From Escherichia phage SR02, in the sequence record OQ870566.1: 64,000 nucleotides of DNA. One strand, given 5' to 3'. A program made the translations under genes and the position numbers. Below are positions 43,170 through 46,986 of this stretch, piece by piece; position 1 is the first letter of the stretch, and every line of letters starts with the position of its first letter. The notes below the pieces were generated by a model. That model was not told the DNA's origin, searched no databases, and saw only the letters and a list, made by a program, of their open reading frames with translations.

Positions 43170-43724
43170 ATGAGTTTACTAGGAAGCCCAGAGTTACATA
43201 AACTAATTGATGATGGTGTTATTGATGCACCACACTCAGCTGTTAACTCCTCCAGCATTGACGTCCGTATTGGAGATCGTGTTCTGATGGAAGGTGCAGC
43301 TAATGGGGTTGTTGATATCTCTGCTAAAGAATCTCCTAACTTCAACGAGGTTATGATTCCAGAGGAAGGGTTGGTGATCAAACCGGGTGAGTGTTTCTTG
43401 GCTCATACAGTGGAGACATTCAATCTTCCAGACAACATTAGCTGTGACTTCATGCTACGATCTACTGTCGGTCGTTGCTTCTTAGAGCACATGCACGCTG
43501 GTCATGCAGATGGCGGTTGGCATGGCAGTCAGTTAACTATGGAATTCAAGAATGTCCTACAACATCACTCTCTTCTGATCAAGCCGGGGATGCGTATTGG
43601 TCAAATGGAGTTCTTTAAACACTCCTCATCCGAAGAGGACAGTTACGCAACGAAAGGTTCATATAATAACCAACAAGGGCCGACAAAAGCTTTTGGTGGA
43701 ACAAACCATGCTGATATGCTATGA
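43170..43724 (+). CDS. dcd: dCTP deaminase family protein
   Basis: SIDVRIGD, PGECFLAHTVE, LRSTVGR and MEFKN motifs in the order found in Dcd/dUTPase-fold enzymes. Confidence 0.75.
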   Translation: MSLLGSPELHKLIDDGVIDAPHSAVNSSSIDVRIGDRVLMEGAANGVVDISAKESPNFNEVMIPEEGLVIKPGECFLAHTVETFNLPDNISCDFMLRSTVGRCFLEHMHAGHADGGWHGSQLTMEFKNVLQHHSLLIKPGMRIGQMEFFKHSSSEEDSYATKGSYNNQQGPTKAFGGTNHADML

Positions 43725-44217
43725 TGAAGTAGTTGACCTCTTTAATATAGACATGTCAGCACCTTCAGGGCTTTCTTGGAAAAGGAAGCCTAGTAAGTTT
43801 GCTAATGATATAGTAGGTAAACCTGCTGGTAAGCTCACAAAAGATGGATATTATCAAATTCCCTTAGGAGGAGTTCGTGTCCATAATCATAGGATTCTTT
43901 TTGTTCTTTATACTGGTGAGGATTTATCGGATGAATATCAAATAGATCATGCTGACGGTAATAGAGAAAACCTAGAAGAAACTAACCTGAGAAAATGCTC
44001 TCACTCTGAGAATAGTCAGAATGCTAAGACAAGGGTTGATAACAAACTAGGAATCAAGAATGTCTACCGAGAGAAAGGTGGAACGTTCTGTGTATCTGTT
44101 CAAAAAGACGGTAAACGTGAGTCTGTATATGGGGTGAAAACTCTTGAAGAGGCTAAGATTTTGGCTAAGTCTATGAGAAGTAGACTTCATCTCTCCTTTA
44201 ATGTGGATGAAAGATAA
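43708..44217 (+). CDS. HNH homing endonuclease with AP2-like DNA-binding domain
   Basis: HNHRILFVLYTGEDLSDEYQIDHADGNRENLEETNLR HNH core; C-terminal AP2-like GKRESVYGVKTLEEAKILA; overlaps dcd 3' end. Confidence 0.8.
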   Translation: MLICYDEVVDLFNIDMSAPSGLSWKRKPSKFANDIVGKPAGKLTKDGYYQIPLGGVRVHNHRILFVLYTGEDLSDEYQIDHADGNRENLEETNLRKCSHSENSQNAKTRVDNKLGIKNVYREKGGTFCVSVQKDGKRESVYGVKTLEEAKILAKSMRSRLHLSFNVDER

Positions 44218-44412
44218 ATGAAAAAGTTTTGGTTAGTGAAGATTAAGTGGTCATCTGGTTGTACGACTATGACCGCACTACCTACTCGTCAACAGGCTCG
44301 AGATTTTAAAAAGTCTATGTTCCATGGAGATTTAACTAAGAGCGTTAGTATCCATAAGGCCAAGGAGTATTCTTCTGGTCGTGTTTATATCAGCGGAAAG
44401 GTACATTACTAA
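44218..44412 (+). CDS. small MKKxW-family protein (64 aa)
   Basis: Paralogs at 44412 and 45830 share MKK.W start and terminal Y. Confidence 0.45.
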   Translation: MKKFWLVKIKWSSGCTTMTALPTRQQARDFKKSMFHGDLTKSVSIHKAKEYSSGRVYISGKVHY

Positions 44413-44621
44413 TGAAAAAGATGTGGGCTATTCATGTTGTTTGGGATCTTGAGCAACACATGAGAAAAGATAACATCAAATTGTTTGACACTCGCAAAGA
44501 GGCTCGTATTGCTAAGAAACAGTTGAAGACTCTGGGCACAATAGTAAAAAGCGCTGACATACATCGCTGGTATGAAGACCCTAACACTGGTTCTTTTATG
44601 TCTAAAGTAATTTACTACTGA
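44412..44621 (+). CDS. small MKKxW-family protein (69 aa)
   Basis: Paralog of 44218 and 45830. Confidence 0.45.
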   Translation: MKKMWAIHVVWDLEQHMRKDNIKLFDTRKEARIAKKQLKTLGTIVKSADIHRWYEDPNTGSFMSKVIYY

Positions 44622-44693
44622 TTGGTAGTAGATATGATAACTCTCAAATGTATATAGAGTACAATAAGAATTTGTATTTTACAGGAGAGAGTT

Positions 44694-45023
44694 ATGTTAG
44701 ATTTGAGTAAAGTGGCCCCGCCCACTGAAGAGATTACAAAATCCAAGGTGATGCAACAGTTTTATCATCGTGATATGCTTGGTCGCTTTATCAAGAATCG
44801 TGATGTTGTTGCTTGGTCTATCGGTAATCAGGGATATCTGTTGAAGGTTCTTCAGGTCACAGGTTCAACTGCTAAGCGAGTTAAGGTGTATGACCCTGAA
44901 ATGGGGCGTTCTAAGTCAGTAGACCCACAGAACTGCATCGTAATTACCCAGCAGGTAATGGATAACATTGCACGTAACGTTGCTAACTCAGTTGAACTTG
45001 ATGGAGAAAACCCAAATGCATAA
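44694..45023 (+). CDS. hypothetical protein (109 aa)
   Basis: ORF with AGGAGAGAG RBS. Confidence 0.5.
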   Translation: MLDLSKVAPPTEEITKSKVMQQFYHRDMLGRFIKNRDVVAWSIGNQGYLLKVLQVTGSTAKRVKVYDPEMGRSKSVDPQNCIVITQQVMDNIARNVANSVELDGENPNA

Positions 45024-45579
45024 GAATGTCTTTGATTTACCTGAGATTGGTCGTGTCGACTACAATATGTTAGACCGGTCTGAGCTTTCAATCTCTCGCC
45101 TTGAAACAATGCAAGGCATGATTAGTGGAAACAGCCTAGAACACATCCTGAGCTGCTTACAAGCTAACATGGAACTCTTGCATATCAAAGCTAAAAACTA
45201 CCACTGGAACGTCTCTGGTGCAGGATTTCAGGGTGTTCATGGTATGTTTGATGAGCTTGAAGATTACGCACGACAAGTAGGAGATCGTATTGCTGAACGT
45301 ATGCGTTACCACTGTGTTAAAGTGGATGCTACAGCAGCCAATTATCTTTCTCATGCTTGGTTCTCAGAGGGTAATGCTGACCTAGACATGGACGGTATGC
45401 TCTCTGATATGTGCATGACCTTGATGTGTATTATTGAGAAGATGGATGAGTTTGATGGTGATTTAGCCACTTATCCAGTTGATCAGAGTATGCTTCAAGA
45501 AATTAATGAAGGTCTTGGCAAGTATTGCTACTTCGTCAAGAGCAACATGTCCCACTCAAGTGGTGATGTGTCTTATTAA
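45016..45579 (+). CDS. Dps/ferritin-like protein
   Basis: KAKNYHWNVSGAGFQGVHGMFDELEDYARQVGDRIAERM matches the Dps ferroxidase-site helix pattern (recalled E. coli Dps). Confidence 0.6.
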   Translation: MHKNVFDLPEIGRVDYNMLDRSELSISRLETMQGMISGNSLEHILSCLQANMELLHIKAKNYHWNVSGAGFQGVHGMFDELEDYARQVGDRIAERMRYHCVKVDATAANYLSHAWFSEGNADLDMDGMLSDMCMTLMCIIEKMDEFDGDLATYPVDQSMLQEINEGLGKYCYFVKSNMSHSSGDVSY

Positions 45580-45640
45580 AAACCTCCGCCCTGTCTCCTA
45601 ATCCGAGGTGGGGCGAACTCATTTATAAGGATATAAATAT

Positions 45641-45829: not shown

Positions 45830-46030
45830 ATGAAAAAATGGTCCGTAGTTTGTGTTGACCCTTCAGGTGCTATTCTATGGGACTTGACTGGTGATACAAG
45901 GAAAGAGATGCGTATTCTTAAAAAGATGCTCAAAGAAGATAACCCTCAAGGGGATGTTTTTCATTTAGTAAAAACAGAAATGTCCAAAAGTGGGAAGGTC
46001 CAACCTGACTTGAGTAAAATTTACTATTAA
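45830..46030 (+). CDS. small MKKxW-family protein (66 aa)
   Basis: Paralog of 44218 and 44412. Confidence 0.45.
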   Translation: MKKWSVVCVDPSGAILWDLTGDTRKEMRILKKMLKEDNPQGDVFHLVKTEMSKSGKVQPDLSKIYY

Positions 46031-46038
46031 GGAACCGA

Positions 46039-46314
46039 ATGTCTAAAGTAATTAAGTTTTATAGTGATCAGTGCGCTCCATGTAAAGCAATGGCTCCTAC
46101 CTTTGAGAAGGTTGTTAAGGAGTTCGATGTAGAAGTGGAAGAGATTAACATCCTTGAAGGTGATGGTCGTGAACAAGCTGTTAAGTATGGTGTACGAAGC
46201 ATCCCTGCTTTTGTTGTACCTGACCGTAACAGTGGTGCACACTACAGCCTCTCCGGTATGCAGACTGAAGCAAACCTGAAAGCATTTTTGGACACAGCCC
46301 TGAGAAATAAGTAA
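46039..46314 (+). CDS. thioredoxin-like protein
   Basis: Active-site CAPCK in WCGPCK position; downstream VRSIPAF cis-Pro motif; 91 aa. Confidence 0.75.
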   Translation: MSKVIKFYSDQCAPCKAMAPTFEKVVKEFDVEVEEINILEGDGREQAVKYGVRSIPAFVVPDRNSGAHYSLSGMQTEANLKAFLDTALRNK

Positions 46315-46329
46315 TAAGGATATTCACGG

Positions 46330-46986
46330 ATGAATGAACAACTACAAGCAACATTAATCGAAGCTATGGGAAGTGATCGTAGCGTAGTAAACGCAGCTCG
46401 AGTTTCCTTTGGCGTAACCCGTGAAGGTGATTTAAATGAACGTGATGAACGTCTCATCAACTTCCTCGCAAGAGAGAAGCATGTCACGCCTTTCAGGCAC
46501 CCGCAAGTCAGTTTCCGATGCAAAGCACCTATCGCAATTGCGAGACAGTTGGGCAAGCATCAGGTTGGATTCTCGTGGAACGAAATGTCCCGGCGGTATA
46601 AAGATGGAGCAGTTGAAGTCTTCATCCCTAAAGAGATTTTTGCGAGACCTTCGGACCTCCATGCAGGTTCAGGGATTCAACTCATCGACGGAGAGCGAGC
46701 TGAAGCATTAATGCTGATTAACGATGCATATGAAGCTTCTCTAGCAGCATATGACAAGTTGATTGAATTTATTGCACCAGAGCAAGCTCGATTTGTTCTT
46801 CCTCAGGGGATGATCACTGAGTGGGTATGGACTGGTTCTTTATATGGCTGGTTTGAGTTATGTCGTCAGCGACTCTCCTCTCACGCTCAATATGAAGTTC
46901 GAGTGTTTGCTAAATCTCTGGATGAAGAGATGGCTAAACTTTACCCAATCTCATGGGCAGCTCTGAAGAAAACTTTGGAGAATTAA
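46330..46986 (+). CDS. thyX: ThyX-like (flavin-dependent thymidylate synthase family) protein with variant signature
   Basis: HVTPFRHPQVSFRCKAPIAIARQLGKHQVGFSWNEMSRRY aligns to the recalled ThyX motif region, but RHR is replaced by KHQ. Confidence 0.6.
   Translation: MNEQLQATLIEAMGSDRSVVNAARVSFGVTREGDLNERDERLINFLAREKHVTPFRHPQVSFRCKAPIAIARQLGKHQVGFSWNEMSRRYKDGAVEVFIPKEIFARPSDLHAGSGIQLIDGERAEALMLINDAYEASLAAYDKLIEFIAPEQARFVLPQGMITEWVWTGSLYGWFELCRQRLSSHAQYEVRVFAKSLDEEMAKLYPISWAALKKTLEN

Follow-up and report, generated by a model that had tools for sequence, protein, structure and literature searches.

A Dps-family mini-ferritin gene in the middle transcription unit of a phiEco32-like podophage

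Why would strong purifying selection maintain a ferroxidase cage at the head of the replication operon in a virulent phage, whose lytic cycle is short? This question is raised by a gene of Escherichia phage SR02, which lies in the 64,000-nucleotide stretch of record OQ870566.1 analysed here (the window) and whose source is a phiEco32-like podophage (Kuravirus). For therapeutic Kuravirus phages it also matters whether replication of phage DNA in aerobic E. coli is held back by the chemistry of iron and peroxide.

A Dps-family gene, its start codon and its database labels

The ORF begins with an ATG at 45016 on the + strand, ends with a TAA at 45579 and encodes 187 amino acids plus the stop codon. 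A sequence-only reading had described the product as a Dps/ferritin-like protein, and profile and structure searches confirmed this assignment. Pfam PF00210 (Ferritin) was matched with an E-value of 2.5e-7 and 31.1 bits, above its gathering cut-off of 24.5 bits, and PHROG 3636 with an E-value of 2.6e-55. A phmmer search of the PDB gave matches down to 2.6e-9, all of them Dps, while a profile built from the phage clade retrieved Dps in 50 of 50 PDB matches (best E 5.4e-15). Together, these scores place the similarity to Dps far beyond chance. An exhaustive profile search runs into the general Dps family, with 3413 matches at E ≤ 1e-3. One protein in that search, P0032 (1156 aa, 20 repeated matches), is a translated tandem repeat with a unit of ~58 aa that lacks the His ligands; it was discarded as a probable assembly or ORF artefact.

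The AF2 monomer model has a pLDDT of 79.8, exceeding 85 over most of the core, and places helices at residues 41-65, 71-98, 107-112, 125-150 and 154-176. It predicts the four-helix bundle of Dps (A, B, C and D) with a short BC helix (107-112) in the long crossover loop, and the fifth, C-terminal E helix of 24-mer ferritins is absent. When this model was compared with the PDB using Foldseek, the best 50 matches were all Dps, with an rmsd of 1.2-1.5 Å over 137-140 residues and target TM-scores of 0.89-0.92 for 1jig, 2d5k, 1n1q and 1ji5. We conclude that the gene encodes a genuine Dps-family mini-ferritin.

Several features support the start codon. A Shine-Dalgarno sequence, GGAG (45003..45006, + strand), lies 9 nt 5' of the ATG, within the coding sequence of the upstream gp68-like gene (44694..45023, + strand; 109 aa, phrog_10984), and the SU7 annotation has a ribosome-binding site at the corresponding position. 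The ATG overlaps the stop codon of this upstream ORF (ATGCATAA), and homologues keep the N-terminus MH(K/N)NVFDLP. Further support comes from phage SU10, in which a product of 21.2 kDa was seen by mass spectrometry (PMC4281155), compared with a computed mass of 21.25 kDa for the product encoded here. Minus-strand ORFs of 42-85 aa overlap the gene and were set aside for want of supporting evidence.

The protein is 100% identical to QEM42636.1 of the Shigella phage SGF2 and 97.9% identical to phiEco32 gp67 (YP_001671812.1), which carries the RefSeq note 'member of the Dps family'. The SR02 ORF is the orthologue of phiEco32 gp67 and SU10 CDS67: across these phages and SGF2 it is the same gene (97.9-100% amino acid identity), behind the same promoter and in the same slot between gp68 and gp66/thioredoxin/ThyX. 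Compared with its Kuravirus relatives, the window adds a nearby HNH endonuclease (43597-44217) and a small phrog_4939 ORF (45830-46030). Values of dN/dS are 0.03-0.05 in the core, which shows purifying selection, versus 0.15-0.18 in the N-terminal extension, and the gene is real, expressed and strongly conserved. Its identification is correct but was known already, as the gene has been annotated as Dps in phiEco32-like phages since 2008 and phage Dps proteins have been discussed (PMC4281155 and PMC7881722); this is not a new kind of gene.

A different identity appears in GenBank and RefSeq, where the product name of YP_010673598.1 (EcoN5), of the IME267 protein and of roughly a dozen further records is 'integrase'. 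We confirmed that this label sits on CDSs orthologous to the Dps gene. No tyrosine or serine recombinase family was matched in Pfam (E ≤ 10) or NCBIfam (E ≤ 1), in sequence, fold and ligands the protein is a Dps, and the carriers are virulent podophages. An integrase can therefore be dismissed with near certainty, and the label is a propagated annotation error. As well as being wrong, it could falsely mark Kuravirus phages as temperate in phage-therapy safety screens.

The ferroxidase centre and its relation to bacterial Dps

The sequence-only reading had recognised the Dps ferroxidase-centre pattern in the peptide KNYHWNVSGAGFQGVHGMFDELEDYARQVGDRIAERM, which corresponds to residues 60-96 (45193..45303, + strand) in helices A and B. 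Alignment to Dps reference sequences, verified against 1f30/1dps (E. coli) and 1qgh (Listeria), located the full ligand set in this segment: H63 (45202-45204), H75 (45238-45240), D79 (45250-45252), D90 (45283-45285) and E94 (45295-45297), with W64 adjacent to the first. H63/W64/H75/D79/D90/E94 align to H51/W52/H63/D67/D78/E82 of E. coli Dps and to H31/W32/H43/D47/D58/E62 of Listeria innocua Dps, and the ligands and W64 are invariant in all 14 sequences of the phage clade (14/14). The arrangement is that of an inter-subunit site, with two His residues 12 apart plus an Asp, an Asp/Glu pair 4 apart and an adjacent Trp. The absence of these ligands and of a predicted four-helix bundle had been named as grounds for giving up the Dps assignment; the ligands are present and invariant and a Dps bundle is predicted, so the assignment stands.

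By homology, the subunits would form a hollow cage of 12 with 23 symmetry, an assembly to which the identity of the fold and the need of the ferroxidase site for a two-fold partner both point. Pairs of subunits would build the di-iron centres, with H63, H75 and D79 supplied by one subunit and D90 and E94 by its partner. Such centres would oxidise Fe(II), preferentially with H2O2, which is the oxidant preferred by Dps, and Fe(III) would be laid down inside the cage. To judge from its ligands, the phage protein is probably an active ferroxidase; a search of the literature turned up no phage Dps that had been studied biochemically or genetically.

The Asp positions at the CD loop and the start of helix D that form the three-fold iron-entry pore of other Dps proteins (D121/D126/D130 in Listeria, D142/D143/D146 in E. 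coli) align to A151/P154/V155/S158 in the phage protein, where D144, E145, D147, D149 and the near-invariant D156 flank the aligned positions. Given that the pore aspartates are not at these positions, alignment suggests that iron entry may differ from that through the canonical pore. Helix C is rich in Met and Cys (DMCMTLMC), and this is kept across the phage clade.

The best matches to the phage protein are tail-less bacterial Dps proteins, namely those of Listeria innocua (1qgh), Bacillus anthracis (Dlp-1/Dlp-2, 1ji5/1jig) and S. aureus (2d5k), with an rmsd of 1.2-1.6 Å and profile E-values of 5e-15 to 8e-11. The phage protein shares their ferroxidase ligands and the spacing of these exactly, and like them has no basic tail, but sequence identity is only 19-27%, and the phage protein differs in its acidic N-terminal extension of ~44 residues, its conserved 11-residue C-tail and the lack of canonical pore aspartates at the aligned positions. 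E. coli Dps (1dps/1f30) has the fold and ferroxidase residues in common with the phage protein at about 18% identity, whereas its Lys-rich N-terminus has no phage counterpart. The NCBIfam equivalog for E. coli Dps, NF006975, scored 34.5 bits against a cut-off of 114 bits and matched over residues 52-96 only, and all of the equivalogs (E. coli Dps, haloarchaeal and cyanobacterial DpsA) scored far below their cut-offs. The phage protein is therefore a family member and not an orthologue of E. coli Dps. Nor is it a recent capture from the host.

Acidic tails and the question of DNA binding

Overall, the protein is acidic, with a pI of 4.72 and a net charge of -15. The N-terminal extension (residues 1-44; 45016..45147, + strand), recognised from charge counts, pLDDT, homologue lengths and dN/dS, contains 1 Lys, 3 Arg and 7 acidic residues (net charge -3). 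Residues 1-23 are predicted by AF2 to be disordered, followed by a low-confidence helix at 24-37 (pLDDT 40-60). The extension is specific to the Gordonclarkvirinae-like clade, within which R28 is invariant, and is absent from the homologues of Privateer, 7-11 and LAh_6 (146-156 aa). The C-terminal tail (residues 177-187, NMSHSSGDVSY; 45544..45576, + strand; pLDDT about 42) has no Lys or Arg, and alignment showed it to be invariant across Gordonclarkvirinae genera, with the terminal Tyr retained even in diverged tails.

In E. coli Dps, DNA condensation is driven by the Lys-rich N-terminus (K5, K8, K10), while Dps proteins that have no basic tail, among them those from Listeria innocua and Agrobacterium, leave DNA uncondensed. 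A Lys/Arg-rich tail indicative of the E. coli-like condensing subtype was sought by charge count, and neither tail qualified. As an acidic protein without a Lys-rich tail, the phage Dps is more likely to be an iron- and peroxide-detoxifying cage than a DNA compactor, and the same charge data speak against the earlier suggestion that it might alter the state of the host nucleoid.

The family name nevertheless implies a protein with the action of stationary-phase E. coli Dps, here coating or condensing the DNA of host or phage, and 'DNA binding protein' is the label in PHROG 3636 and in many records. The position of the gene among replication genes would suit such a role, and the coupled gp68 product could lend DNA affinity through an SH3-like barrel, a kind of fold that often binds nucleic acids. 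However, the label is inherited from the family name and is unsupported, and the function of a phage Dps annotation was called unverified by others (PMC7881722). The protein is strongly acidic, with one Lys in the N-terminal tail and none in the C-terminal tail. The AF2 model of gp68 (pLDDT 70, pTM 0.52) predicts a small SH3-like beta-barrel between flanking helices, but its Foldseek matches to KOW/Tudor/PWWP barrels were weak, with nothing below E 0.02, and so not significant. gp68 can only be described as a predicted 'SH3-like small barrel'. We consider a DNA-binding or compacting role improbable.

The middle transcription unit and the role of the cage

The gp68 gene is even more conserved than the Dps gene, and the two are translationally coupled. 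A gp68 homologue lies directly 5' of Dps in phiEco32, SU7, KBNP1711, EP335, Privateer, LAh_6 and two metagenome contigs, and this upstream partner is found only in the prolate-podophage lineage. Expression is known from published proteomics of SU10, in which the gp68 product was detected by mass spectrometry along with Dps (CDS67), the latter at 35.8% coverage (PMC4281155).

A middle promoter region precedes the gp68-Dps pair (44611..44656, + strand). A consensus scan identified a sigma70-like element, TTTACT-16 nt-TATGAT, at 44611-44638, and AAATGTATATA at 44646-44656 matches the phage-sigma motif tAATGTATAtA. This region is near-invariant across three genera, and the SU7 annotation places a promoter here too. 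In SU10, a sigma70 promoter 5' of CDS68 opens the middle genes and bears the phiEco32 sigma-36 motif (PMC4281155). Across the window as a whole, enrichment of the phage-sigma motif AATGTATA is not significant (6 occurrences versus 2.7 expected, with 7 of 100 shuffles reaching 6), so the promoter call relies on position, on conservation between genera and on the phiEco32/SU10 analysis in the literature. Dps is the second gene of this middle transcription unit for replication and nucleotide metabolism, which also holds genes for thioredoxin (46039-46314, + strand; Pfam Thioredoxin, E 2.1e-13), the flavin-dependent thymidylate synthase ThyX (46330-46986, + strand), dCTP deaminase, polymerase and primase/helicase. 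The ThyX assignment draws on how collinear genes are annotated in phiEco32, SGF2 and other phages and on PF02511 in the L011 and L012 equivalents.

Just 3' of the Dps stop codon is a conserved hairpin (45587..45615, + strand) with an 11-bp stem, a 7-nt loop and no clean U-tract; in SU7 the stem is kept and the loop is different. Its RNA fold of -17.5 kcal/mol is of modest significance (z -1.95), and a terminator scan made no call after the Dps gene, this hairpin included. It is possibly an RNA-stabilising element or a weak terminator that closes the gp68-Dps pair.

Detectable Dps genes are present in 138 + 171 of 50,697 phage records, and 97 records carry this one at ≥80% identity, including essentially all relatives. 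The statement that such a gene is uncommon in phages of this size thus holds for phages in general and fails for this lineage: Dps is rare across phages, yet it is a core gene of the phiEco32-like and related prolate podophages. Other carriers are the Grimontviridae (Privateer, 7-11), Lahexavirus, Streptomyces phages of the Stanwilliamsviridae, Lactobacillus phages of Harbinvirus, Campylobacter phages of the Eucampyvirinae and the gut 'Gratiaviridae' (PMC8008677). Their proteins are 26-45% identical to that of SR02, are shorter, at about 130-156 aa, and have neither the N- nor the C-terminal tail of Kuravirus; the carriers are virulent, the genes often have DNA- or nucleotide-metabolism neighbourhoods, and an antioxidant role has been proposed for them. 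The replication/nucleotide module context recurs in Kuravirus, Privateer, 7-11, LAh_6 and two metagenome contigs, with thioredoxin, ThyX, dCTP deaminase and NrdD. In Streptomyces phages, independently acquired Dps genes are 1.6-1.7 kb away from ThyX and close to RNR, and in Campylobacter phage CP20 the gene adjoins GTP cyclohydrolase I and primase/helicase, while those of Lactobacillus phage Iacchus and cyanophage S-SRM01 have no nucleotide-metabolism context.

The physiological role of the phage protein is most likely the removal of Fe(II) and peroxide. It would be made together with the enzymes of DNA replication and nucleotide metabolism, and, with free Fe(II) and peroxide removed, replicating phage DNA and redox-sensitive enzymes would suffer less Fenton damage. 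Host Dps is scarce in exponentially growing E. coli, and ThyX flavoenzymes produce H2O2 in an NADPH-oxidase side reaction. The cage probably acts without condensing DNA, as the basic tails through which E. coli Dps binds DNA are missing from it. Taken as a whole, this picture of a non-condensing, iron-oxidising cage made with the replication genes is one that we regard as reasonably probable.

The same cage could in principle buffer iron, as a store or donor for the host class I RNR or for the Fe-S activase of the anaerobic RNR of related phages. The intact ferroxidase site would serve this purpose, and Dps adjoins NrdD/NrdG in LAh_6, Privateer and contig L011 and lies near RNR in the Streptomyces phages. 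However, the Kuravirus region examined contains no RNR gene, and a short lytic cycle leaves little need to store iron. The capacity of a Dps cage for iron is small, about 500 atoms, and protection rather than storage is the usual function of these proteins. We therefore judge an iron store to be very unlikely.

Detoxification by a cage made with the replication genes, which we prefer, does not in its simple form account for the conserved N- and C-terminal tails or the tightly linked gp68. A protein associated with the virion of prolate C3 podophages, loaded via these tails and protecting packaged DNA or entering the next host, would make use of them. A Dps homologue was among ten phage proteins identified by mass spectrometry in Privateer virions purified on CsCl step and equilibrium gradients (PMC7881722), and Dps was also found in SU10 particle preparations (PMC4281155). 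In addition, the gene is universal in, and limited to, the prolate-head lineage, and the C-tail with its terminal Tyr is conserved. Against this, the SU10 preparation was only PEG-precipitated and also contained DNA polymerase, thioredoxin, PhoH and sigma factor, and its authors caution about carry-over (PMC4281155). The structural-protein list from SU10 cryo-EM ends at the gp20-24 ejection proteins, without gp67, and Dps is a middle gene of the replication module, outside the late structural module. The Privateer homologue lacks both tails, and an iron-loaded or DNA-bound cage could conceivably co-band with phage in CsCl. Virion association is retained for the sake of the Privateer data, as a minority explanation that we think unlikely.

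In encapsulins, an HK97-fold shell takes up ferritin-superfamily cargo that bears a short conserved terminal peptide. The phage also pairs a ferritin-superfamily protein and an HK97-fold shell with a conserved terminal peptide, but the likeness is an analogy only: SU10 structural work gives no sign of Dps packaging, and we claim no sequence relationship. A speculative proposal, to which we assign a low probability, is that Dps and the coupled gp68 constitute a two-gene module in which the N-terminal extension and C-tail are docking peptides. These would direct the cage either to the replisome or DNA, or to the prolate capsid, with loading into or onto the capsid resembling that of ferritin-like cargo by encapsulins; such a module would explain the presence of Dps in CsCl-purified Privateer virions.

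Identity of the phage Dps protein

A phage Dps/ferritin-like protein had been proposed from a ferroxidase-centre helix motif, and the ORF that carries this motif is real: it runs on the plus strand from an ATG at 45016 to a TAA ending at 45579 and encodes 187 aa, of which the originally quoted peptide makes up residues 60-96. Good support for the start codon comes from a GGAG 9 nt upstream, from overlap of the ATG with the stop codon of the preceding ORF at 44694-45023 (ATGCATAA), from conservation of the N-terminus MH(K/N)NVFDLP among homologues, and from a computed mass of 21.25 kDa, in agreement with the 21.2 kDa Dps product that was seen in phage SU10 by mass spectrometry (PMC4281155).

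The family assignment was borne out by sequence, fold and ligands. The protein matched Pfam Ferritin (PF00210) above the gathering cut-off, across helices A and B only, and PHROG 3636 (E 2.6e-55). A phmmer search of the PDB returned only Dps proteins (E 2.6e-9 and weaker), and all 50 PDB sequences retrieved with a profile of 14 phage-clade sequences were Dps, with Bacillus anthracis Dlp-2 as the best match (E 5.4e-15). The AlphaFold2 model (mean pLDDT 79.8, above 85 in most of the core) features helices at residues 41-65, 71-98, 125-150 and 154-176 and a short BC helix at 107-112, which separates Dps from 24-mer ferritins; the top 50 Foldseek matches in the PDB were all Dps, with rmsd 1.2-1.5 Å across 137-140 residues. 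A check for missing ferroxidase ligands and the lack of a four-helix bundle found neither, as a four-helix Dps fold was predicted and all six ligand residues aligned. Using E. coli Dps (full-length match to 1f30/1dps) and Listeria innocua Dps (1qgh) as references, phage H63, W64, H75, D79, D90 and E94 correspond to H51/W52/H63/D67/D78/E82 and H31/W32/H43/D47/D58/E62, respectively, and all six are invariant within the phage clade. NCBIfam Dps equivalog models scored far under their cut-off (34.5 vs 114 bits), which indicates a divergent family member rather than a host Dps orthologue. In the alignment, A151/P154/V155/S158 stand at the positions of the canonical iron-entry pore aspartates, with other acidic residues close by.

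The 3-kb region around the gene matched 98 phage records at 80-99% identity, nearly all of them from phiEco32-group phages (Gordonclarkvirinae, Kuravirus) of Escherichia or Shigella. The encoded protein shares 100% identity with QEM42636.1 of Shigella phage SGF2 and 97.9% with phiEco32 gp67, which RefSeq lists as 'DNA binding protein; member of the Dps family', so both gene and family assignment have been public since the phiEco32 genome publication. As an annotated gene it is already known, and at least two papers discuss it; the literature search turned up no experimental study of its role. Kuravirus orthologues in GenBank/RefSeq also carry the label 'integrase' (YP_010673598.1 from NC_070986.1, the IME267 orthologue P0005 and about a dozen other records). 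This identity was refuted for the Dps orthologue and the label is a propagated misannotation, which could cause these phages to be mistaken for temperate ones in therapy screening.

Charge, tails and predicted role

Relative to orthologues from three genera, the core had a dN/dS of 0.03-0.05 and the N-terminal extension one of 0.15-0.18, values that are approximate because dS is near saturation in inter-genus pairs. Most likely, the protein forms a dodecameric ferroxidase cage that is made alongside the replication enzymes. Such a cage would remove free Fe(II) and use up H2O2, thereby limiting Fenton damage to replicating phage DNA and nearby redox-sensitive enzymes. Family, fold, ligands, selection, operon position and expression are established, and the oligomer, its activity and its physiological role are inferred from them. 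A role in iron supply appears unlikely.

The proposed cage would act without condensing DNA. E. coli Dps and M. smegmatis Dps1 need Lys/Arg-rich tails to condense DNA; Dps proteins that lack such tails, for example that of Listeria, are ferroxidase cages only. The phage protein is acidic (pI 4.72, net charge -15), its N-terminal extension of 44 residues contains a single Lys at a net charge of -3, and its 11-residue C-tail has no basic residues, all of which argues against DNA compaction and leaves it an unlikely function. The widespread 'DNA binding protein' label is inherited from the family name, and the function has been described as unverified (PMC7881722). Both extension and tail are confined to a Gordonclarkvirinae-like clade, whereas the homologues of Privateer, 7-11, GAP52 and the Aeromonas LAh phages have 146-156 aa and are 30-45% identical. 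The C-tail, NMSHSSGDVSY, is unchanged between genera, and its terminal Tyr is kept even where the tail diverges.

The whole protein contains 15 Met and five Cys. Unlike bacterial Dps proteins, it features a Met/Cys-rich stretch in helix C (GMLSDMCMTLMCII, residues about 124-140, 45385-45435 on the plus strand), in which M128, D131, M132 and M134 are invariant and C133 is nearly invariant across the Kuravirus-like clade. ROS scavenging and soft-metal binding are guesses at its function.

Expression and the question of packaging

The intergenic region upstream of gp68, the ORF preceding the Dps gene, is nearly invariant across genera. It features a sigma70-like promoter, TTTACT-16-TATGAT, at 44611-44638, followed by AAATGTATATA at 44646-44656. 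At the same site, the SU10 study places a sigma70 promoter ahead of CDS68, at the start of the middle genes (CDS68 to CDS25), and it reports the phiEco32 sigma-36 motif tAATGTATAtA in the middle promoters as well (PMC4281155). The Dps gene is therefore second in the middle (replication) unit. Directly after its stop codon, a plus-strand hairpin with an 11-bp stem (45587-45615) has a stem that is invariant across genera and a loop that is different in SU7; a good U-tract is lacking, the fold z-score is -1.95, and a terminator scan did not call it.

Mass spectrometry of SU10 detected CDS68 and CDS67, the Dps orthologue, at 22.9% and 35.8% coverage (PMC4281155). That material was PEG-precipitated rather than CsCl-purified and also contained polymerase, thioredoxin, PhoH and sigma factor (PMC4281155), so it demonstrates expression but not packaging. 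Dps as virion cargo draws on Privateer, where it was one of ten phage proteins detected in virions purified on CsCl step and equilibrium gradients (PMC7881722), but co-banding of an iron-loaded or DNA-associated cage would be a simple alternative. The SU10 cryo-EM structural list ends at ejection proteins gp20-24 and lacks gp67. We regard packaging as improbable.

Upstream gene, neighbourhood and distribution

The upstream gene, gp68 (44694-45023, plus strand), encodes 109 aa of phrog_10984 with no Pfam or NCBIfam match. In its AF2 model (pLDDT 70), two helices flank a five-stranded SH3-like barrel, for which a structure search returned only KOW, Tudor and PWWP barrels, none significant. Homologues were located at L003 3139-3423, L005 3109-3462, and in metagenome contigs L011 (3243-3590) and L012 (716-1033), where gp68 is more conserved than Dps (72-73% vs 39-49% identity). 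In the phage collection its distribution mirrors that of prolate-podophage Dps (130 vs 138 records, same hosts), and in all lineages examined except 7-11 it lies directly before Dps with stop and start overlapping or abutting. Since these phages share ancestry, co-occurrence of the two genes is by itself no proof of a functional link; the persistence of translational coupling across very divergent prolate podophages is suggestive of one, no more. Interest remains in this coupling, in the conserved tails and in the virion signal of Privateer.

In both the window and phiEco32, Dps is preceded by primase/helicase, exonuclease, nucleotidyltransferase, dCTP deaminase, small phrog_4939 paralogues and gp68, and followed by a 59-aa membrane protein, thioredoxin, ThyX, ligase, PhoH and DNA polymerase. 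In Privateer, 7-11, LAh_6 and two metagenomic contigs, the homologue has similar neighbours, joined by anaerobic RNR genes. Two Streptomyces phages (L007, L016) carry an independently acquired Dps 1.6-1.7 kb from ThyX and near RNR, and that of Campylobacter phage CP20 (L015 3956-5176) adjoins GTP cyclohydrolase I and primase/helicase; the Dps loci of one Lactobacillus phage and one cyanophage showed no nucleotide-metabolism link. The picture is mixed; the placement in the Streptomyces phages and CP20, which are unrelated lineages, hints at a recurrent functional association with DNA and nucleotide metabolism.

The sequence-only reading had called such a gene uncommon in phages of this size, which holds for phages overall but not in the prolate-podophage lineage of the window, where Dps is universal. 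Homologues were detectable in 138 of 50,697 phage records with this protein and in 171 with Listeria Dps, two partially overlapping sets, so Dps is rare among phages, though it recurs in several lineages, as noted for gut phages by Benler et al. (PMC8008677). An exhaustive search showed a narrow phage clade (seven representatives at E < 1e-30), followed by general bacterial Dps. A predicted metagenomic protein of 1156 aa (P0032) was rejected: its roughly 20 tandem 58-aa copies weakly match positions 63-98 of the phage Dps profile and lack the His ligands, and it probably arose by translation of a DNA tandem repeat or as an assembly artefact.

Three small paralogous plus-strand ORFs of phrog_4939 (64-69 aa; 44218-44412, 44412-44621 and 45830-46030) flank the gp68-Dps pair, each starting with MKK and ending in aromatic -HY or -YY; the third is missing at the equivalent position in phiEco32 and SGF2. 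Upstream of them, a plus-strand HNH homing-endonuclease ORF with a TTG start (43597-44217; PF13392, phrog_99) is likewise missing at the corresponding place in both phages, and in most relatives the match to the query begins only at base 219, which suggests a mobile insertion.
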